DNA of 64,000 nucleotides from the NCBI GenBank assembly GCA_949285605.1, contig CASDZI010000005.1, positions 14,508 through 78,507 on the forward strand, in the 5' to 3' direction. Below the pieces are notes generated by a model. The model was not told the DNA's origin. It saw only the letters and a list, made by a program, of their open reading frames with translations, and ran no database searches. Each line of letters begins with the position of its first letter. The stretch's first letter is position 1. This document shows positions 30,158 through 47,110 of this stretch, in pieces. The DNA comes from an uncultured Christensenella sp. (GTDB taxonomy: Bacteria; Bacillota; Clostridia; Christensenellales; DTU072). Made by a program: the position numbers and the translations under genes.

Positions 30158-30814
30158 ATGGAAAAAACCAAAAATTTCTTTAAGAAAATCAAAACTTTTC
30201 TGGACGAGCACGAGGACATAAGACAGCTGGTATTTTTCACGCTGTTCAGTTTTGTGTGCTTTCTCATCGAATACGTCACGTTTTTCGTATTGAAGTTTGC
30301 GTTGAAGAACGTCAACGAACCGTTCGAGTGGTTCATTTTCTCGTACAAGACCGGAGGTCTCGGCGAGTTTATCGCCTTCCTGATGTCCAACGTAGTGGCG
30401 CAGGCGGCGACGTTCATTCTCAACCGCAAAAAGACCTTCAACGCCAACAACAATATCGTCTACGCCGCTTCTATGTATGCGATAATGGTGTGCGGAATAA
30501 TAATTCTGAACACCTGGCTGGGCGGAGTGATCAGCGACGCCGTGACCGAAGGAACTTCCATACCTCAGGATTTCGCCGCCATAATCGGCAAACTGGTAGG
30601 CTCTTTCCTCTCCTTCGTGATAAGCTTCCTTATGAGCAAGTTCGTAATTATGCGTAAATCCAAGAAGAACGACGAAGAAAACGCCGAGCAAGCCGAAAAC
30701 GCCGAAACGACGGCGGAAGAAGCCGAAGGGACCGTAGCGGAAGCCGTCGAAGAAGCCGGAGAAGCGGTTGCGGAAGTAGCGGCGAGCGAAGAGGCTTCCG
30801 GGAACGAAGAATGA
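30158..30814 (+). CDS. GtrA-like four-TM membrane protein with an acidic C-terminal tail
   Basis: Four TM helices and the ..FILNRKKTFNA.. motif typical of the GtrA family. The last ~55 aa are E/A-rich. Confidence 0.6.
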   Translation: MEKTKNFFKKIKTFLDEHEDIRQLVFFTLFSFVCFLIEYVTFFVLKFALKNVNEPFEWFIFSYKTGGLGEFIAFLMSNVVAQAATFILNRKKTFNANNNIVYAASMYAIMVCGIIILNTWLGGVISDAVTEGTSIPQDFAAIIGKLVGSFLSFVISFLMSKFVIMRKSKKNDEENAEQAENAETTAEEAEGTVAEAVEEAGEAVAEVAASEEASGNEE

Positions 30815-36602: not shown

Positions 36603-36794
36603 TCAGCCTATGTGTTTTTGAAGAAATACGATAATATCGCCGACGGTTTTAACGTCTTCGAGTAAGATCAGTAACTGCACCAGGTCGAGACTGTCCGCTC
36701 CGAGATCTTCCACGAGACGGCTCTCATCCTTTATGTCTGCCTCGTCGAGCATAAGCTGTGCGGCGAGAGCTTTCTTGACTTTATCGCTTAACAT
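36603..36794 (-). CDS. Acyl-carrier-protein-like protein, internally shortened (63 aa)
   Basis: ..VEDLGADSLDLVQLLILLED.. retains the DSL phosphopantetheine site. About 13 residues (helix III region) are absent compared with canonical ACPs. RBS GGAGG. Confidence 0.7.
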   Translation of the reverse strand: MLSDKVKKALAAQLMLDEADIKDESRLVEDLGADSLDLVQLLILLEDVKTVGDIIVFLQKHIG

Positions 36795-36819: not shown

Positions 36820-37755
36820 TTAAACGTCGTTCCCGTAAAGACGACGGGACGCGCTGAAATCTATTATTTGGGCGCCCTTCTTTGCGAAGAACGGTATTAT
36901 AAGGAGAACGAGGAACAACGCTGCGGTAACGTAAGCGCCTGCGGCGGGACCCGTCGTCTCCATCATAAACAATATAATTATGTTCGCCACCGAGCAAATT
37001 AAACCGATCAATACCGCTACGTTGAAGTTTCTGGGAGACTTGGTCGCGCCGAGCTTGACGAGGTAGTAAATGATGGCTATTACGACGCAAACGACAGCTA
37101 CCAGATACAATACCGGGACCAGGAACGTCATCAGAGCCGTTCCGAAATCCGCCGAAAATCCTTGCGACAGTCCGTCTGCGAAAACTTTGGACATTATTCC
37201 GCTGTAATAGGAACTGGTTATCCCGCTCACTCCGAGCAACGCAAGCAGTCCGAAAACCGAATCGAGAGCGGTGGAACCGGGCGTTGCGCAAGTCAACAGA
37301 CACATAATAACGCAAGCCGCTACCGCAAACAGAATGCACAACACGCTAAGTCCTGCGTAAGGTTTGGCTCTGTAAATGGGTTCGAGGTTGGTCTTTTGGA
37401 TCTCCTCCCGGTAATTGGGATCGTACTGGAGCATGGGCTGCGCCTGCGACGCAAACGGCACCAAAGCTATGGGTTGCACGATGGGCGGCATCTGGACGAT
37501 GCTGGAAGGAGTGGGAATGGCGTTGTAACGGTTGGCGTCGATGGGTCCGAACCCTCCGCCTGCGTTGGAGGCAGGCTGTCCGCCCTGCGCATAATAATAA
37601 TTCCCGTCGGACGCCAGACTCGGATTGGCTGCGTCGTTACTTACCGGGAACGGAACCGTTTCCGCTTCCACGGGTACCCAGGTACCCTCTTTCCCGTTGA
37701 TGACTCCCCTGTGCGGCTGTGCTCCTTGCGGATTTTTCTGATAAAGATTATCCAT
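36820..37755 (-). CDS. Locus gene 9: cytoplasmic Q/P-rich N-region carrying the QP..VPF..QP..Y motif, fused to a four-TM module
   Basis: RBS TAGGAGA. Motif SIVQMPPIVQPIALVPFASQAQPMLQY at aa 85-111. Four predicted TM helices with K/R-rich inside loops. Confidence 0.8.
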   Translation of the reverse strand: MDNLYQKNPQGAQPHRGVINGKEGTWVPVEAETVPFPVSNDAANPSLASDGNYYYAQGGQPASNAGGGFGPIDANRYNAIPTPSSIVQMPPIVQPIALVPFASQAQPMLQYDPNYREEIQKTNLEPIYRAKPYAGLSVLCILFAVAACVIMCLLTCATPGSTALDSVFGLLALLGVSGITSSYYSGIMSKVFADGLSQGFSADFGTALMTFLVPVLYLVAVVCVVIAIIYYLVKLGATKSPRNFNVAVLIGLICSVANIIILFMMETTGPAAGAYVTAALFLVLLIIPFFAKKGAQIIDFSASRRLYGNDV

Positions 37756-37778
37756 AAGTTAATCTCCTAATTAATTAT

Positions 37779-38240
37779 TTATTGATTGAGGTTGACGTTG
37801 ATTTGCGGGGTCTGAATGTGTTTTGCCGGGGTAGCCACCGGTACCGGAGCGGAACAGGGCATAGCTCCGTATGTCACTTTGGCACGGAAAACTCTGCCGT
37901 ACTCGTCGGTAGCGTAGTAGACCGGTAAATTCTGCAATCCGTTGGCGACGTAGTTCTCGGCGTCGTAATTGCCGTTGACGGGAAGCGGTACCGCAAAACA
38001 AGGTTGCGGAGCTGCCGGATACGCATTACGGGCAGTCCTGTCTATGTCCTTGCCGTAAACGGGAGCGGGCTGTTCCTTCCTCGCATACTCGAAAGCGTTG
38101 CGGGGACGTTTTTTTCCGCAGTGGGAACACACTTTGGCGTTGAGCGGATTGAGCGTTCTGCACTTGGGACAAGCGTAAAAATATTTTACGCCGGCGTTAT
38201 CCGTACCCGTTGCCAGAACCTGTTTTTTGATCTTGTTCAT
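37779..38240 (-). CDS. Locus gene 8: zinc-ribbon protein with a degenerate QP..VP motif
   Basis: CPKCRTLNPLNAKVCSHCGKKRPRNAFEY, paralogous to the ribbon in 42644..43789. Followed by ..PQPCFAVPLPVNGNY... Confidence 0.75.
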   Translation of the reverse strand: MNKIKKQVLATGTDNAGVKYFYACPKCRTLNPLNAKVCSHCGKKRPRNAFEYARKEQPAPVYGKDIDRTARNAYPAAPQPCFAVPLPVNGNYDAENYVANGLQNLPVYYATDEYGRVFRAKVTYGAMPCSAPVPVATPAKHIQTPQINVNLNQ

Positions 38241-38249
38241 CTTGCACCT

Positions 38250-39044
38250 CTAAGCTTTTTTACCTTTCGCCGTCAGAGCGATGATCGCCGTGATAAGATA
38301 CAATGCGGTGATTATATATGCGCCGTAACCTATTTCGGCTTTGTTAACGAACATCATAGCGAGCGCCACTCCGGTAAATATCAACGCCAGCACAGCCGTG
38401 ATCTTCCCGAACAACGCAAACCTCTTCGCTCCCACCGAAAACAATCCTACGAGAGCGGTAATTATCCCCAATAAAGCCCCGAGAGCGAGTCCTGCGGGCA
38501 TTATCAGAGCTTTTATGTCCAAATCTCCTCCGAAAGCGTCGGTAAGTCCCATTATAATGGCAAGGGCGCCTTTCCCGTCCGCCACGAGGATATATTCGAA
38601 ATCCACGAAATAGCTTATCGCCGAAACCGCCAACGCTATCAACGCAAACAAAAACGTAAACAACGCCGAGACGTTGACTTTCCTCGCTTTGCGTTCCTTC
38701 CTCGCCGCACGGTCGTCGCGGTACTCTCCGTCCTCGGCATAGCCGTATCCGTCCCCTTCGGGGTAAGCGTATTCGCTCGAGGGCGCTCCGCCGTTATAAA
38801 AAGCGTTCATCGCTTCCGGCGTATATTGATACAACGGTTGCATCTGACTGGAAAAAGGCACCACGATAAGCGGTTGCACCATGGTGACGTTTCCTGCCGG
38901 ATTGTTAACCTGCGTAGGCAAAACTTCTTCCTGCGGTGCGGGAATGGGGATCGTAGGTTCTTTTACGGTCTCGGGCAACAGAGACGAAGCGTTGTCGTCT
39001 CGCCAGAAACTTTTACCTTCACCGGCTCCGTAAAAATCTGCCAC
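38250..39044 (-). CDS. Locus gene 7: motif-bearing N-region fused to a four-TM module
   Basis: GTG start after GGAGGAG, overlapping the end of gene 6. Motif TMVQPLIVVPFSSQMQPLYQY, an acidic/aromatic stretch, a basic anchor RAARKERKARK, then four TM helices. Confidence 0.8.
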   Translation of the reverse strand: MADFYGAGEGKSFWRDDNASSLLPETVKEPTIPIPAPQEEVLPTQVNNPAGNVTMVQPLIVVPFSSQMQPLYQYTPEAMNAFYNGGAPSSEYAYPEGDGYGYAEDGEYRDDRAARKERKARKVNVSALFTFLFALIALAVSAISYFVDFEYILVADGKGALAIIMGLTDAFGGDLDIKALIMPAGLALGALLGIITALVGLFSVGAKRFALFGKITAVLALIFTGVALAMMFVNKAEIGYGAYIITALYLITAIIALTAKGKKA

Positions 39045-39696
39045 CTTGGTTCTCCTCCGTTTTTATTTTTTTCCTGCCCGCTGCGGCTGTTACCGTCGCA
39101 ACGAACGCAAACAATATGGCAAAATGTAATCCTGCCGCAGACAGCATTCCGCTCGCCGTAACGAAAATCCACAACAGAATTTCCGACAACAACCAAACGA
39201 AACACGCCGCTTTCATTATTTTCCCCGTATACGGTTTCTTCAAGGAAGCCGCCGCTCCCGCCAAAACCGCCACGGTCATTATTACGGTTATCAACCCCGT
39301 TACGGCAGCCGCCGTGGACATCGGGAACGCATCGCCCGAAAACAGAGGTTTTACCGTATCGACTATGCTCGCCCCGTCCGCCGTAAGGAACCATACTTCG
39401 TTGAATACGATTCCGGCTACCGCCACGATAAGCGCCGCTATCGTCATCGCCAGTACCACCGCAGAAACGACGTTGAGCCTCTTTTTTGCGACGGTCTCTA
39501 TTTCCTTATTATAATTATAGACGTTTCCGTAAGCCAGTTCTCTCAGTTCGTTCTTTACCCTGCGGACCTCTCCGAAATAATCGTCGTTACTGCCTTTACC
39601 GTAAAGAAAAAACTGACTGGTCGGGGAAACTTCGAACTTCCGATACCTTTCTTCTCTCTCGGAAAGCAAAGGCTCTTGTTGTTTTTTTCCCTTCAT
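39019..39696 (-). CDS. Locus gene 6: four-TM module protein (no motif)
   Basis: SD-like AAAGGGG. Four TM helices. First outside loop reads ..FLTADGASIVDTVKPLFSG... Confidence 0.75.
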   Translation of the reverse strand: MKGKKQQEPLLSEREERYRKFEVSPTSQFFLYGKGSNDDYFGEVRRVKNELRELAYGNVYNYNKEIETVAKKRLNVVSAVVLAMTIAALIVAVAGIVFNEVWFLTADGASIVDTVKPLFSGDAFPMSTAAAVTGLITVIMTVAVLAGAAASLKKPYTGKIMKAACFVWLLSEILLWIFVTASGMLSAAGLHFAILFAFVATVTAAAGRKKIKTEENQGGRFLRSR

Positions 39697-39710
39697 CTGA
39701 CCCCTTTATC

Positions 39711-39950
39711 TCAGAAGTCGTCGTCTTCGTCGTAATAGTCGTCGTCAACGTAGGTCGCCAGAGGTTGCTGCTGAGTGCTGAACGGCACCATTACTATGGG
39801 TTGCACGATGGGCGGCAGCTGAATGATCTGGCTTGCCGGTGCAACCGGATAAGGATACGCCGCATTTATCGGACGGAAAGTCACGTCGGGAGCTCTCTCG
39901 ACGTTTTGGGTAACTTCGTAGTTGTCTTTGTTCTTTTTCTTTCTCGCCAT
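39711..39950 (-). CDS. Locus gene 5: 79-aa soluble protein made of a basic N-terminus, the QP..VPF..QP motif and an acidic/aromatic tail
   Basis: RBS AGGAGGG overlaps the gene 4 stop codon. QIIQLPPIVQPIVMVPFSTQQQPLATY is followed by VDDDYYDEDDDF. Confidence 0.75.
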   Translation of the reverse strand: MARKKKNKDNYEVTQNVERAPDVTFRPINAAYPYPVAPASQIIQLPPIVQPIVMVPFSTQQQPLATYVDDDYYDEDDDF

Positions 39951-39959
39951 AAAACCCTC

Positions 39960-41204
39960 CTATTCTCCGAACGTGTCGAAAATGCTGAACGGTATTTTCT
40001 TTCTGCAGAACATACTCAAAATCAATACCAGGACCGGTAAAGCTAAAAGTATAAGCAATCCGTATCCTCCGGAAAAACCGCCCGATTTGGTCAAAGCGCC
40101 GGTAAGGATACCGACCATGTCGCCGTAAGCCATCGTCGCCCCGAGGTCGGTCGTGAACGCCAACCCTCCGAAAGCCGTGACCGCGGCGAAAATTATCATA
40201 AATATCGCTCCGAGTCCGAAGCACTTGAATATCCTCTTCCCGAACATTCCGAAAAACGCCTTGATCATCATTATCAACGCACTGATAACGTAAAGTATAA
40301 GGCATACCGGGAAAGCAAGAATTATGTAAGGAGCGATGGTGTCCGCCATTCCGACTTCGACTTTGGCTATCATCTGATCGTACAGAGGACTTTCTCCGAA
40401 ATTGAGGTCCATATTGAGCTTGTTGCCGACGTATTTGATAAATCCGAAAATCGGATCGAGTACGCCGTAAGTCGTGCCGTCGAAGGCCGGAGCCGTCGTT
40501 TCTTCTTCGCTTTCGCCTTCGGTCTCCGACCCTTCGCCCTCTGCGGTTTCGCCCTCGGAGGTCTCGCCGCCTTCTTCGGCGGTTGCGTCGGCATTGTAGA
40601 GTCCGCTTGCGGCATTCTGCGCTTCTTCGGTCGTGTCGCCGGTTTCTTCGGTCGTGTCGCCGGTTTCTTCGGTCGTGTCGCCGGTTTCTTCGGTCGTGTC
40701 GCCGGTCTCCTCGTCGGTCTCGGCGGCTTTCTTTTCGGTCTCCACGAACAAAGCGGTATATTGAGCGGGGATCTGTTCTATCTTGACAAAGCCCAGCACA
40801 AAATACGCCACGCTCACCAAAAGCACCAGGAACATAAGAAAACATACCGACTTACGCATAATGAAGAAATAATCCTTCGCTTTCTTCTGCTTACGGTCGG
40901 CAGGCAAACGATAATATTCGGTATCGATACCCCCTCTGCCTTCGATGGATTCCACCTTGCGACGGAAACGGGTATTTTCTATGGCGTAATTCTGACGGTT
41001 GCGGAGTTGAGCCGCTCTCGCCCTGCGTTCCGCCCTGCGGGCTTTTTCTTTTTCGGTTTTCCGTTTGCTCTTCTTCTTTCCGCCGTTCTTGTTGTCGGGG
41101 GGAGTGGCGGGCATACCGTATCCCATACCCTGCCCGAACATGGGGAACCCTCCCATCGGATTGGGTACGTTGTTTGCGTTAGTTGTCTGTTCTTTTTTTG
41201 CCAT
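39960..41204 (-). CDS. Locus gene 4: four-TM module protein with a basic N-region and a hyper-acidic repeat insert in the first outside loop
   Basis: TM1 at about aa 113-140. An acidic T/E/G-rich insert covers aa 155-237 and includes 4 x ETGDTTE. ..GVLDPIFGFIKYVG.. precedes three more TM helices. Confidence 0.8.
   Translation of the reverse strand: MAKKEQTTNANNVPNPMGGFPMFGQGMGYGMPATPPDNKNGGKKKSKRKTEKEKARRAERRARAAQLRNRQNYAIENTRFRRKVESIEGRGGIDTEYYRLPADRKQKKAKDYFFIMRKSVCFLMFLVLLVSVAYFVLGFVKIEQIPAQYTALFVETEKKAAETDEETGDTTEETGDTTEETGDTTEETGDTTEEAQNAASGLYNADATAEEGGETSEGETAEGEGSETEGESEEETTAPAFDGTTYGVLDPIFGFIKYVGNKLNMDLNFGESPLYDQMIAKVEVGMADTIAPYIILAFPVCLILYVISALIMMIKAFFGMFGKRIFKCFGLGAIFMIIFAAVTAFGGLAFTTDLGATMAYGDMVGILTGALTKSGGFSGGYGLLILLALPVLVLILSMFCRKKIPFSIFDTFGE
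40623..40706 (-). repeat. Perfect 4 x 21-nt tandem repeat inside locus gene 4
   Basis: The plus-strand unit TTCTTCGGTCGTGTCGCCGGT occurs four times without mismatch. It encodes a seven-residue period (ETGDTTE) on the minus strand. Confidence 0.95.
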
Positions 41205-41417
41205 TTTACCACCCGATAGATTTATGCTCGTCTCGGGACGAAGTCCTTCGTACGGGCATACCGCTACGACTTTACATAATATTAGATAATACTATATGTT
41301 ACAGTTTATCATACACCGAAAAAAATATCAATAGTAAATCCGCAAAAATTTTAGACTATTTTAAGGTAAATTTTCCCTCAAAAAAGCCGTAAAACTTATT
41401 TTTTTGATAAATAAAGC

Positions 41418-41453
41418 GGAAAATAAAGCAAAACCGCACCCGAAAGTGCGGTT
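41418..41453 (-). terminator. Rho-independent terminator after locus gene 3
   Basis: Minus strand: AACCGCAC / GTGCGGTT stem with a 6-nt loop, followed by TTTGCTTTATTTT. Confidence 0.65.
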
Positions 41454-41466
41454 AATAAAAAATTCC

Positions 41467-41709
41467 TCAATAGTCGTCTTCTTCGTCCTCTTCGGGGGGA
41501 AGGTAAGGCTGTTCCGTCCTGAACATACCGAAACAGGCGGCAGGCGGCATCTGAATATTCCTCGCCACAGTGGGAATAGGAGCGGGCATGCCCGTGGGGT
41601 TGCAGACGGTAAATACGATTTTTTGCCGTTTGGAAGCCTGCGATCTCATGGCTTTACCGTAGGACGGGACGGGTCTTTTTTCGTCGGAACGGGAGGTTTT
41701 TTTGCTCAT
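41467..41709 (-). CDS. Locus gene 3: 80-aa soluble protein made of a basic N-terminus, a degenerate motif and an acidic/aromatic tail
   Basis: ATGA start/stop overlap with gene 2. RBS AAGGAG. NIQMPPAACFGMFRTEQPYLPP is followed by EEDEEDDY. Confidence 0.7.
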   Translation of the reverse strand: MSKKTSRSDEKRPVPSYGKAMRSQASKRQKIVFTVCNPTGMPAPIPTVARNIQMPPAACFGMFRTEQPYLPPEEDEEDDY

Positions 41710-42515
41710 TTTTTCTCCTTATAAAACTTATTTTTTTTGTAAGCGAAAATAGTGCACAATACCGAAAGGACGCCGCAAGCGGCAAGGACGTAAAACCCCG
41801 GGGCCGCCTGTAAATAAGCGTTTTCGCCGGTAAAGAAGCCGGCTATATCGCTTCCGCCCGAAGCGTAAATCCCTCCGAACATCGCCGCAAGGGCGCAGAG
41901 GATCAGCACCACGCCTATGAAGGCGAAACCGATTTTTCTGTAACCGCCGTCGGAGCGTCTCCCCGAAAACACCGCCGCCAGCCCTTTCAGGAAACCTATC
42001 AGGGCAAACACCGCCGCAATCAGCGAAGCTATGGGTACGGCGTAAAGAGCGGTTTTGGTTATATCGGAGGCTCCTTCGGTCCCGGGCAGGAAAAAGCGGT
42101 TGTAATAGACCGATTCCAGCCCGTCGGCGCCCAGTTCTCTGAACATTCCGAAGGCAGGATCGAGCAACCCCACCGCCTCGGGATCGTCTCCGACGGTATT
42201 GAATAAAGCCAGATACTTCTCCGCAGACGTCAACCCGACCGCCCCCAGAGCGGCAAACATCAACGTCGCCAGCATCAATACCGTTATTACGACGAGTAAA
42301 AAAGTTCTCTTTTTTATGTATTTCGCTTCCGAACGTCTGTTTACGCTCAGCGTGAGCGCGGACGGAGCGTTCTCTATCCTCGCCTTTTCCGCCATATAAG
42401 CCCGATAATACGGACTGCTCAGATAATCGGCGTATGTGATAAACTCAAGATCCGTCATCTCTTCCACGGATTTGTTAAGTCCGTCGGAACAAACCTTTTT
42501 CTTCCTGAAAGCCAT
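41706..42515 (-). CDS. Locus gene 2: four-TM module protein
   Basis: RBS GGAGG. The loop ..KYLALFNTVGDDPEAVGLLDPAFGMF.. is alignable with ..QYTALFVE...GVLDPIFGFI.. in gene 4. Four TM helices; K-rich C-terminus. Confidence 0.8.
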   Translation of the reverse strand: MAFRKKKVCSDGLNKSVEEMTDLEFITYADYLSSPYYRAYMAEKARIENAPSALTLSVNRRSEAKYIKKRTFLLVVITVLMLATLMFAALGAVGLTSAEKYLALFNTVGDDPEAVGLLDPAFGMFRELGADGLESVYYNRFFLPGTEGASDITKTALYAVPIASLIAAVFALIGFLKGLAAVFSGRRSDGGYRKIGFAFIGVVLILCALAAMFGGIYASGGSDIAGFFTGENAYLQAAPGFYVLAACGVLSVLCTIFAYKKNKFYKEKK

Positions 42516-42578
42516 ACAGGCTACCTCCGTTGCTTTCTCCTCCTCCGCCCGTATCGGGCAAAGTAAGGTTTTTTTTAC

Positions 42579-42631
42579 GCAAAAAGCGAAATCGCTTACA
42601 CCATTCCACCGAAAATGTCCTCGATTTCGCT
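42579..42631 (-). terminator. Terminator-like or attenuator hairpin between locus genes 1 and 2
   Basis: Minus strand: AGCGAAATCG / CGATTTCGCT 10-bp stem with a 27-nt loop, followed by TTTTT. Confidence 0.45.
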
Positions 42632-42643
42632 TCTTAATCCTAT

Positions 42644-43789
42644 TTAACGGTTTTTCTTCGCCGCTTTTTCAGCCGCCTTAGCCGCCTTTTTCGCTTCCTT
42701 GGCGGTCAACTGACGAGCGGGAACGCTTGCCTGAGCTTCGGCGACCTCAGGCATGTCGGGTACGAATTTATAAACCACCTTGTTGGGATTGTATTGGTAA
42801 ACGGGCTGATTGGGATTGACGTAAGGCACGATGGCGAACGGCTGCGTTGTGCCTCCGCCCTGTCCGTAATAAGTGGCTCCACGGTCACCCAAAATCCTTC
42901 TTACGGCAGCCCTTTCCGCATTTATTCTGTCGTCGGCGGCACGTTCGATAGCCTGTTTCTCTGCGGCGTAGCGAGCTGCGGCCTCCTTGTCGGCGAGTAT
43001 CCTTTCCTCCACTATTCTTTCCACGGCGGCCTGCTGCAAGGCGCTCTTGGAAAGGCGGATCTTTTCGTCTGCGGCCTGTTCCGCCGCAATGATCTGCAAC
43101 ACCGCCTGTCTTGCCGCCACTCTCTCGGCTTCGTCACGGGCGGAAAGAATGTGTTCGTTGGCGTAACGCTCTGCGGCTTTACGGTTGGCTTCCACCTTAT
43201 CCTTGGCTACTTCTTCTATCCCGGCTCTCTCCGCTACCAGTTTTTCGGCGGCGGCGTTCAGTACCTTTTCTCTTTCCTGGGCAATGAGGTCTTCGATCTC
43301 TTTATTGCGACCGGCTACCACGTCGTCGGCCCGTTTCTCGGCTTCGGCGACCCTCTCGTCGGCGGCGTTTTCGGCGGCGACCACTCTGAGGACGGCGTCT
43401 CTCGCCGCAGCTCTCTTGATGGCCTCCCTCTCCTGTTCCAGACGAATCTCTTCCTCCGCAAGGATCCTCGCCCTTTCGTCGGCGACCCTGCTCTCCACCA
43501 GGCGTACCATCTGTTGCTGCGCGGCGTCCCGCCTCTCGTCGGCAAGTCTCGCCTGAGCGTCGACGTACTGCTCTCTTACGGTCTTCGCATTCTGCATCCG
43601 TTCCATCGCCTTGAGATACTCGCTTCTGGGACGACGCTTCCCGCAACGTACGCAGTTGGCGGCGGTGATAGCGTTGACTTTACCGCAGTATTCGCAAATA
43701 TACGACAACTGTTCCATGCTTAAATTAACATCGGCTTCGGTGTCGAATTGAGCTTTGTCGTTCAGTTTGTTTTTATCTGCCATAGTCAT
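42644..43789 (-). CDS. Locus gene 1: zinc ribbon, long A/E/R-rich coiled coil, C-terminal QP..VPY..QP..Y motif and a K/A tail
   Basis: CEYCGKVNAITAANCVRCGKRRPRSEY. Internally repeated helical segments (..AARDAVLRVVAAENAADE.. versus ..AARQAVLQIIAAEQAADE..). ..TQPFAIVPYVNPNQPVYQY... The true start may be the second ATG (43783), which has better SD spacing. Confidence 0.8.
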   Translation of the reverse strand: MTMADKNKLNDKAQFDTEADVNLSMEQLSYICEYCGKVNAITAANCVRCGKRRPRSEYLKAMERMQNAKTVREQYVDAQARLADERRDAAQQQMVRLVESRVADERARILAEEEIRLEQEREAIKRAAARDAVLRVVAAENAADERVAEAEKRADDVVAGRNKEIEDLIAQEREKVLNAAAEKLVAERAGIEEVAKDKVEANRKAAERYANEHILSARDEAERVAARQAVLQIIAAEQAADEKIRLSKSALQQAAVERIVEERILADKEAAARYAAEKQAIERAADDRINAERAAVRRILGDRGATYYGQGGGTTQPFAIVPYVNPNQPVYQYNPNKVVYKFVPDMPEVAEAQASVPARQLTAKEAKKAAKAAEKAAKKNR

Positions 43790-43926: not shown

Positions 43927-45529
43927 TTATTTATTGAAGGAATCTTTAAGATCTACGATACGGTAAAAGACGAGTTTATCGCCTTCTTTCCCCGCAAGTT
44001 TGTAATACGCCGCCCTTATGAACTGAAAAGCCGTCCCGAACGCCTGTTCGGCAAGGTAAGGCTCGGCGTAACCGCCTTCGATAACCTCTAAAGAACGGGG
44101 ATTTATCCTGTCGTCGAAGTCTTTTTTGTCTTCGGTTTCGTCGGTGAGAAGTCCGGAATATTTCATAAGCTTGGCAGGGACGCACTTCTTTGCGTCCACC
44201 CAGTGAATAACTCCCTTGACCTTTATACCGGCGTTAACGCCGCCCTGTTTGCTGTCGGGAACGGCCTCGCAGGTCACCGAAAGCACTTTCCCGTCGGAGT
44301 CGGTTTCGTGGGAAAGGTATTTCAGGATATAGCCACCCTTGAGCCTCACCATACCTCCGGGTACCAGTCGATGATATTTCGGGGGAGGATTCACCGCAAA
44401 ATCGCTCCTTTCGATATAAATTTCTCTGCCGAGAGGCGCTTCGTGCGTAGCGGAATTTTCGTCGTTGGGGTTGTTGACTAGGGTTATGCTCTCCTCTTCT
44501 TCCAAATTGGAAATGACGACCTTCAACGGGTCCTCCACCACCATTACCCTGTCGGCGGTACGGTTGAGCTGATCCCTGACGTAATGCTCCAGCAAAGCCG
44601 AGTCCACTTCGCTGTTGGCTTTGGCTACGCCCACGGCGGCGCAAAAGGCTTTTATCGCTTCGGCGGGATACCCTCTTCTCCTCATTCCGCTCAAAGTGGG
44701 CATACGGGGATCGTCCCAGCCGTCCACCACGCCGTTGTCCACCAGTTTTTTAAGGTAACGCTTGCTCATAATGGTGTTCTTTATGTTGAGCCTGGCAAAT
44801 TCGTATTGATGAGGAGGATTGGCGAATCCGCAATTTTCCGTCACCCAGTCGTAGAGGGGACGGTGATCTTCGAATTCCAGCGTGCAGATAGAATGGGTTA
44901 TACCCTCTATGGCGTCCCCTATGGGATGAGCGAAATCGTACATGGGATAAATAAGCCATTTGTCGCCGGTATGGTGATGATGAGCCCGCAAGATCCTGTA
45001 AAGGACGGGGTCTCGCATATTGATGTTGCTGCTCGCCATATCGATCTTCGCCCTCAGGGTTTTGCTTCCGTCGGGATACTTCCCCTCCCTCATTTCGGCA
45101 AAAAGTTTCAGATTTTCCTCCACCGAACGGTTGCGCCAGGGGCTTTCGGTGCCGGGCTGAGTGAGAGTGCCTCTGGTCTGACGGATCTCCTCCGCCGAAT
45201 AATCGCAAACGTACGCCAGACCTTTCTTAATCAGTTCCACGGCGCAATCGTAGGTCTGCTCGAAATAGTCGGAAGCGAAACACTCGTTGTCCCACTCGAA
45301 CCCCAGCCAGCGTATGTCTTCTTTGATGCTGTCGACGTATTCCACGTCCTCTTTGGTGGGATTGGTGTCGTCGAAACGCAAATTGCATTTCCCGTTATAT
45401 TTTTCCTTGATTCCGAAATTTATTGTGCAGATATCCGTTCGGTTCGGGCGGGAAACGGGTGACCGTACTCTCGCAACGACCTTCCGCTATATCCTTTTCC
45501 ACCACCGCTTCGATAAAATTATTTGCCAC
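43927..45529 (-). pseudogene. glnS: Glutaminyl-tRNA synthetase pseudogene (frameshifting deletion removes the HIGH motif)
   Basis: GTG start at 45529 after AAGGAGG. The reading ..[12 protein letters not shown] then runs into a stop. The +1 frame continues [22 protein letters not shown]... The segment IGHAKSIC expected between the two parts is absent. KMSKS-type IMSKR is present downstream. Confidence 0.8.
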
Positions 45530-45908
45530 TGTGTCCTCCTTTCCCGCATTCGCAAGGGAATGTGAGATTTTTGCTTTCGATTTCCATTTTTCCGTCTTTT
45601 TCGACAAATCCGAATTTCTCGAAATAGCCGTCCGAATAGGCGACGACCAGTTTTTCCGACACGCCGGAACAACCGTACAGCAGGCTTCGGGTGAAGAAGT
45701 CGCCGTAGCGTTTACCCCTATGCGAGGGAAGGATCCCCACGCTTTTCAGGACGGAAACTTCGGGCGTGACCGACACCGAGGCTATTCCCACGGGAGCTTG
45801 TCCGTCGAAAAGCACATACCCTATCTGCCCGTCAAAAGGCAGGCGAAAAATTTCCGAATTGAGCCCGTCGAGCAATTCCTTGTCGTTGGTTGCGGTATAT
45901 GAAAGCAT
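45519..45908 (-). CDS. GNAT family N-acetyltransferase (small)
   Basis: ..[19 protein letters not shown].. acetyl-CoA-binding-like motif. RBS GGAGAAGA. The 3' end overlaps the glnS start by 11 nt. Confidence 0.6.
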
Positions 45909-46003
45909 ATCTTCTCCGAAAAAAACAGATTTGTTATTATAAAGCGAATGGGCGACCGAAAGTCACCCATACCTATTTTGCTTTAAGCGTCTCTGCCGCC
46001 TTT

Positions 46004-47110
46004 TCAGCTGTAATACCTTTCGGCAAGTTTGATGAGACACTCTTCCAGGATTTTCTGATCCTCTTCCTCCTGGAAACCGTTGATCTTGGCGGTTTCGATG
46101 AGGACGGCTATTTCCTCGAGGTCCTCGTCGGTGGTCTCGGGATCGGCAAGCGCCTTGTCCACGACTATGAGGAGAACGGACAGATACCTCGCTTCCTCTT
46201 CTTTGGTCATGGGAACGTAGACCTCTTCTTCGGCTTCTGCCGCCGCCTCTTCTTCGGGCAGAACCTCCTCTTCCGCAGGTTCTTCCTCCTCGGCTTCTTC
46301 CTCGGGCACCACTTCGAGCTCGGCAAGCACGTCGCTTTCGGGCACCGTAAACACCTCTTCGTCTTCGGCTCCGTCTTCCATTCTGCCCGCCATAAGTTCG
46401 TCGACTTTGGCTTTTATGTCCTCGAGTTCGTCCCCGGCATAAGGCTCTTCGGGTTTTTGAGCGATGACCACTCGGGCGTCGAGGATGTCCTGAAAGCTCG
46501 CATAACACAGCTCCAGACGTTTACGCTGTTTTCCGTAGACGTAACCGAGAATGAAATAAAAGAATACGAAAACCGCCACGGGAAGTAAAACCGTGGTTAT
46601 GATCGACGCTACCAAAGAAAATTCCGAAGTGAAATCTTCTATACCGACGGCGGCGAGGTCGCCCTTGCAGGCTCCGATGATCATTACGGAAGCGATGACC
46701 CACCACACCACGCTCAATACGCAGAAGAAGGCTTTGCCGAAGGTATTTTTGCCGGTATATTCACGGGAGTCGAGAACGTCGTGCGCCGGCATGTAATCGG
46801 AAGGATAACCGTTTTTCTCTTCCAGGAAACGTCCCCACCCTTTCTCCACGGCTTCGGGAAGACGTTTGAGTTCGGCATAGACCGATTCGACGTTTTCTTC
46901 GTCCACTCTTTCCGTAGCGGCGATTTTTTTGGTGACGGAAATGAGGTTTTTCCTGAGTCCGTTGATTCTGCTGAACGAAGAAATCAGTATCGCAAGCACA
47001 AAAATAACTGCGGTTACGATTACTCCTATAACGGCAATTTTAAGTTCGTTATTTGGTATAAACTCGATTTTGCCTAAAAAATCGTTCACAGAAGTGGTGA
47101 AATTATCCAT
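46004..47110 (-). CDS. Hypothetical membrane protein with an acidic C-terminal domain
   Basis: 368 aa. N-terminal TM helix plus at least two central TM helices. E-rich stretch EEEAEEEEPAEEEVLPEEEAAAEAEEE. Confidence 0.6.
   Translation of the reverse strand: MDNFTTSVNDFLGKIEFIPNNELKIAVIGVIVTAVIFVLAILISSFSRINGLRKNLISVTKKIAATERVDEENVESVYAELKRLPEAVEKGWGRFLEEKNGYPSDYMPAHDVLDSREYTGKNTFGKAFFCVLSVVWWVIASVMIIGACKGDLAAVGIEDFTSEFSLVASIITTVLLPVAVFVFFYFILGYVYGKQRKRLELCYASFQDILDARVVIAQKPEEPYAGDELEDIKAKVDELMAGRMEDGAEDEEVFTVPESDVLAELEVVPEEEAEEEEPAEEEVLPEEEAAAEAEEEVYVPMTKEEEARYLSVLLIVVDKALADPETTDEDLEEIAVLIETAKINGFQEEEDQKILEECLIKLAERYYS

Follow-up and report, generated by a model that had tools for sequence, protein, structure and literature searches.

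Bacterial GlnRS, the product of glnS, is described by the family model TIGR00440 and by the crystal structures 1gsg and 1qtq from E. coli, and 5bnz. In a published survey, GlnRS was present in 10 of 28 Firmicutes, most of which had gatCAB as well; possessing gatCAB does not necessarily make GlnRS redundant, the GluRS being of the discriminating type in the cases tested, and Sorangium cellulosum has a GlnRS pseudogene (PMC3927822).

The locus described here is located on the minus strand of the window, by which we mean the whole stretch of 64,000 nt that was analysed, and to which all positions refer. It is an ordinary bacterial gene for glutaminyl-tRNA synthetase (class I), and belongs to a Christensenellales-like species of Clostridia that is uncultured. 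As for the bacterial GlnRS proteins mentioned above, the window copy is collinear over its full length, with the same domain order and with IMSKR as a second signature of the VMSKR type, but it differs from them in that 23 nt, corresponding to (I)GHAKSLC, are missing and the gene is frameshifted. The features of the locus, and the same-strain contigs used for comparison, are collected in Table 1.

Table 1. Positions of the glnS pieces, the neighbouring genes and the same-strain contigs in the window
Feature	Position	Strand	Source	Length	Remarks
glnS 5' part	45424..45529	-			GTG start to codon 35 (..PPEPNGYLH) and first base of Ile codon
Deletion junction	45423..45424	-		23 nt	TAGGACACGCCAAGAGCCTGTGC of relatives missing between these two bases
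Out-of-frame tail of glnS N fragment	45395..45423	-			NKFRNQGKI and TAA stop (45395-45397)
glnS remainder	43927..45423	-		498 codons + stop	+1 frame
Upstream ORF	45519..45908	-		129 aa	3' end overlaps glnS start by 11 nt
Acyl-carrier-protein-like gene	36603..36794	-			39-nt in-frame loss at about 36657/36658
L098	53715-45508		ERZ17292903	8,208 nt	1 mismatch
L110	45397-40677		ERR10610440	4,721 nt	100% identical
L111	43871-41268		ERZ17292903	2,604 nt	100% identical
L101	23821-20615		ERR10610440	3,207 nt	100% identical
L106	33504-29908		ERZ17292903	3,597 nt	99.94% identical

Reading frames and family identity of glnS

A preliminary description of this DNA had presented glnS as a pseudogene, split in two by a short deletion. 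When the frames were read again, translation from the GTG at 45529 was confirmed to run to ..PNGYLH, to exit the GlnRS frame at 45424|45423 and to stop nine codons further on; the same GTG is the start in gene calls on same-species contigs. The GlnRS sequence resumes in the +1 frame with IMSKR as described, and extends over 498 codons; the annotated 484-aa ORF (P0005) is this frame taken from TTG 45381. The 70-aa and 484-aa ORFs are indeed the two halves of one glnS.

The remainder comprises the rest of the catalytic domain, including IMSKR, and both anticodon-binding domains, and it matches the Pfam families PF00749, PF03950 and PF20974. Within PF00749, the N-terminal fragment covers profile positions 3–15 and the remainder positions 24–313. 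With the NCBIfam model TIGR00440 (glnS equivalog, cut-off 425.8 bits), the remainder scores 601 bits over profile positions 23–524, and the intact same-species GlnRS P0001 scores 655 bits, also above the cut-off of 426. After they had been joined in silico, the two pieces could be aligned over their entire length with 5bnz (E 1e-177) and 1gsg (E 1e-173), and IMSKR, a second signature of the KMSKS type, aligns with VMSKR of E. coli GlnRS. The only gap in these alignments consists of eight residues at GHAKSICL, in agreement with the proposed loss of eight codons, except that the lost residues are (I)GHAKSLC and not IGHAKSIC. Based on the full-length match to class I GlnRS models, the family assignment is solid.

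The ATP-binding HIGH signature, which belongs to the Rossmann fold's first beta-alpha unit, is absent from both fragments, as had been claimed: its first His is all that is left of it in the 5' part, and GHAKSLC is missing from all frames of the window glnS. Nor does the gene have a single uninterrupted frame, the shift at 45424|45423 being followed by the stop at 45395–45397. Owing to the lost 23 nt and the frameshift, the Rossmann fold has lost its continuity along with the signature. Judged from its sequence, the window glnS as written would be a null allele, specifying a stub of 44 residues and, in the best case, a HIGH-less product of 484 residues, both of them catalytically dead.

The 129-aa ORF that overlaps the glnS start is carried as an identical copy by 16 contigs of the species, and a family search with it gave no match. 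Nine consecutive or neighbouring ORFs (153–414 aa) in window 36820–43789 and 45519–47110 are without Pfam match, yet the same ORFs are called as genes on contigs of the species. They include a protein of 379/381 aa that has a Cys-rich motif at its N terminus and a long charged region rich in Ala, Glu and Arg. Across window 1–64000, there is no Rfam match at gathering score and no tRNA gene, although it includes rplK-rplA-rplJ-rplL-rpoB-rpoC and fusA-tuf, regions that often carry ribosomal-protein leaders.

The 23-nt deletion and the alleles of related genomes

When the DNA was aligned with that of ten relatives (Christensenellales-like Clostridia, uncultured, 76–93% protein identity), exactly 23 nt were absent between window 45424 and 45423, which bears out the earlier proposal of one deletion of about 23 nt, and which accounts for the frameshift as well as for the loss of HIGH. 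The missing bases, as read from same-species contigs, represent two bases of the Ile codon and the codons for GHAKSLC. The intact allele carries TAGGACACGCC.. at this site, and the junction of the deleted allele reads CTGCACA|ATAAATTTCGG (CTGCACA|ATAAAT at the break). There is no microhomology at the junction, and the position of the deletion is therefore unambiguous; no run of N and no repeat was seen to mark the join.

In the intact allele, a 6-bp inverted repeat, TGCACA..TGTGCA, brackets the 23-nt segment. Hairpin-mediated deletion was nevertheless rejected, since the fold is no better than those of shuffled sequences (z -1.1; 34 of 200 shuffles fold as well). Slippage between direct repeats was also rejected, given the lack of microhomology and an imperfect repeat, CTGCACAT/CTGTGCAT, that predicts a loss of 24 nt and not 23. 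Nor could the junction be reproduced by a spurious overlap of the flanks; this same pair is the closest imperfect repeat, and would again give 24 nt.

When the repaired protein was compared with 5.8 billion protein clusters, the close matches were three proteins of 541 aa (99% identity), all with HIGHAKSLC, and one of 484 aa (100% identity). The latter, P0005, was seen once among about 15 billion proteins, on a single contig of 97,432 bp that is evidently the window's own. Exact look-ups with the window's 484-aa ORF, P0005, the 381-aa neighbour and EF-Tu turned up no record of the window's own contig. Same-species contigs, namely those encoding the close GlnRS matches and those carrying the identical upstream 129-aa protein (97.3–99.2% nucleotide identity), have the whole 23 nt unchanged in nine samples (ERZ24773261, ERR11477902, SRR7683046, ERZ28614030, SRR27143250, ERZ24773222, ERZ28614512, SRR7457757 and ERZ28613772). 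In a tenth sample, SRR29449921, which represents another strain, the contig (L099) terminates 7 nt into the segment. Among the sequences compared, the window's assembly is thus the sole carrier of the deletion, and JGI metagenomes, scanned for the deleted as well as the intact allele (flanks separated by 0–23 nt), gave no match. Across the 80 related loci returned, GlnRS is encoded in full length, and at the site itself glnS is intact in 10 of the 10 relatives with which the window was compared. By these sequences, the lineage taken together maintains an intact and conserved glnS.

Once the 23 nt are put back, the window glnS shows 7–9 synonymous and 6–8 non-synonymous codon differences relative to the same-species genes. 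Six of the non-synonymous differences cluster at GlnRS residues 352–368 (window about 44426–44476), which form one 17-residue loop, and because three of these six changes agree with the sister species (P0004), we regard the segment as an allelic tract; it looks recombined or allelic, and not like decay. No private amino-acid change is found in the window glnS outside this polymorphic loop, and the codon comparison with same-species genes gives no indication of relaxed constraint on the remaining sequence. The description of the gene as "caught early in decay" is thus without support, the lesion itself aside. If biological, the 23-nt lesion would have to be extremely young.

Since the 484-aa ORF is itself unbroken and retains the anticodon-binding domains, one may ask whether a shortened gene could have taken on a new role, with the HIGH-less product acting in regulation or in the binding of tRNA(Gln), or whether recoding could rejoin the frames. 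We consider this extremely improbable. The form is known from one assembly only, no other genome conserves a truncated form, and rejoined frames would still be without GHAKSLC. Furthermore, outside the polymorphic loop the amino acids are those of a working enzyme, with no hint of adaptation. Recoding and a new function of the 484-aa product were rejected on these grounds.

Same-strain assemblies and a second private deletion

The same strain is represented by five contigs that are effectively identical to the window; they come from ERZ17292903, an ENA assembly made with MEGAHIT (k87), and from run ERR10610440 as assembled in Logan. One of them, L098, is 99.99% identical to the window and ends at 45508, 84 nt upstream of the glnS junction, and L110 begins at 45397, 26 nt downstream of it, such that the junction is crossed by neither same-strain assembly. 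Together the two contigs span window 53715–40677 save for 110 nt, the only hole in 13 kb, and the junction falls inside this hole. The only assembly that bridges the gap, that of the window, has the 23-nt loss there. A clean two-allele bubble would leave contig ends exactly at the junction; since the offsets of 84 and 26 nt are unlike this, the hole has the look of a coverage gap, and a local gap in coverage in the ERZ17292903 and ERR10610440 read sets is its simplest reading.

Three assemblies have termini within about 133 nt of the junction, and the locus may be generally poorly covered. At window 40677, the Logan contigs of ERR11477902, SRR7683046 and ERR10610440 all end inside a repeat-rich 414-aa ORF, a shared end that presumably reflects a k=31 repeat branch.

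Over the approximately 20 kb that can be compared with same-strain contigs, the window differs from them by 3 mismatches and by not a single indel. Indels relative to same-species contigs were listed over window 20615–55895, where they fall into three groups: those that are intergenic or belong to one variable gene end near 30.7 kb, those in acidic low-complexity repeats, and two clean deletions. The latter are the only ones in non-repetitive conserved coding sequence, and consist of the 23-nt deletion in glnS and one of 39 nt in an acyl-carrier-protein-like gene 8.8 kb away. The 39-nt deletion removes KEYAVTFEEDEIK and shortens the product to 63 aa from 76 aa. The window form matches positions 5–49 of 77 in acyl-carrier-protein profiles, as compared with 5–76 for the intact form. 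In the protein collection, the 63-aa form occurs once, on the same 97,432-bp contig as P0005, and 14 related clusters found on >120 contigs are all of 76 aa. None of the same-strain contigs fetched spans the site of this deletion. Given that indels are absent wherever same-strain contigs exist, the window's only non-repeat indels fall where independent support is absent.

The length polymorphisms in the acidic repeats are in frame, and amount to 15 nt at about 46299 (ORF 46004–47110), and to 12 nt at about 40526 and 21 nt at about 40706 (both in ORF 39960–41204); the two ORFs are without family match. Because the 15-nt state at about 46299 is also present in the same-strain contig L098, it represents genuine strain variation. 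The most indel-variable spot of the 35 kb compared is window 30680–30800, at the 3' end of the GtrA-like ORF 30158–30814, where over a distance of about 120 nt the strains differ by many indels of 1–7 nt. A generally indel-prone assembly, for instance one built from long noisy reads, was rejected as a source of the deletions: coding indels of 1–2 nt are absent from the 35 kb compared with the same species, and indels of any kind from the approximately 20 kb compared with the same strain.

The breaks near the junction in both same-strain assemblies would also be in keeping with a deletion that is real but subclonal, with deleted and intact cells in the sampled community, the window's assembler having taken the deleted path at a point where the others broke. 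A graph assembler should need junction-bearing reads in order to write the sequence, and an otherwise pristine gene is what one would predict for a variant that arose only generations ago. However, a two-allele bubble should stop the contigs at 45424 and 45423, and not at the distances observed. A line lacking functional glnS could reach visible frequency only if GlnRS were redundant, and the acyl-carrier-protein deletion means that the coincidence would be needed twice. On balance, we find a subclonal deletion unlikely.

Origin of the deletion and comparison with known systems

It may further be asked whether the deletion is real and fixed, glnS being a very young pseudogene tolerated by means of a non-discriminating GluRS together with GatCAB, or of a second glnS. 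Taken as it stands, the sequence represents a clean null allele, in an assembly that is otherwise base-accurate relative to the same-strain contigs. Since most of the GlnRS-bearing Firmicutes surveyed have gatCAB, a viable glnS-null strain is possible, and the Sorangium cellulosum pseudogene provides a precedent; on the other hand, gatCAB does not imply a non-discriminating GluRS (PMC3927822). The 64-kb window contains no gatC, gatA, gatB, gltX or second glnS, and no tRNA gene, that for tRNA(Gln) included. With a GatB probe sequence, no GatB-like gene was found in 1.17 Mb of DNA that includes the window. In Thermus thermophilus GluRS, Arg358, which reads anticodon position 36, marks the discriminating type of enzyme, and Gln the non-discriminating type. 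That glnS is dispensable by way of GatCAB, as had been suggested, is conceivable in principle and unsupported by the window data.

A fixed deletion also fits poorly with the evidence presented above. The allele occurs in none of the same-species contigs reaching the site (10 samples), and 1.5 kb of remaining gene carries no signal of relaxed selection. The breaks in the same-strain assemblies are left unexplained, and a junction placed by chance in the sole 110-nt hole of 13 kb has an estimated chance of about 1%. We therefore hold a fixed pseudogene to be quite unlikely, and find it very unlikely that a living strain is a natural GlnRS knockout in a GlnRS-dependent species, relying on mischarging by GluRS and on GatCAB and being in the course of switching back from the direct to the indirect route.

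The comparison of the orthologous site speaks largely against a settled pseudogene: the same-species contigs that reach it are intact and the same-strain assemblies break, with a second private deletion nearby. The private allele, the pristine remainder of the gene, its conservation in relatives, the same-strain breaks and the twin lesion instead point to a weak spot of the assembly. With a confidence only somewhat above even, we interpret the 23-nt loss as a lesion specific to this assembly, at a site of poor coverage, with a presumed technical cause. The loss would then most likely not be present in the genome of any living lineage. Its seat would be a poorly covered point that the other same-strain assemblies could not cross, and that the window's assembler probably bridged by a faulty join or by a single aberrant read; the deletion in the acyl-carrier-protein gene 8.8 kb away would seemingly be an event of the same kind. 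Points against a technical cause are the normal dependence of short-read graph assemblers on junction-containing reads, the rarity of 23-nt deletions among read errors, and the failure of a spurious flank overlap to reproduce the junction. Readings other than an artefact, a subclonal deletion or a fixed pseudogene account for only a small part of the probability. Whichever reading holds, events of this sort are ordinary and already known.

Were the deletion real, it would mean that GlnRS is dispensable in a gut Clostridia lineage, with a loss dated to within a strain, and it would add a modest point on the redundancy of the two Gln-tRNA routes. As things stand, the main value of the observation is a practical caution regarding the draft genome: because the deletions in glnS and in the acyl-carrier-protein gene are without independent support, inferences on gene loss or metabolism from this genome should not rest on them.

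The GlnRS pseudogene of Sorangium cellulosum is likewise a disrupted glnS, in a group in which the direct route is found alongside the indirect one (PMC3927822). There, the disruption is a species-level state seen in a finished genome, and the GatCAB route is used, whereas the lesion described here is private to one draft assembly of a species that otherwise has an intact glnS. In metagenome-assembled genomes, local indel errors occur at joins of low coverage. The window join differs from such errors in having no N run or repeat, but resembles them in other respects: the lesion has a similar companion, neither of the two shows any evolutionary follow-up, and it is private to one assembly and sited where the same-strain assemblies break.
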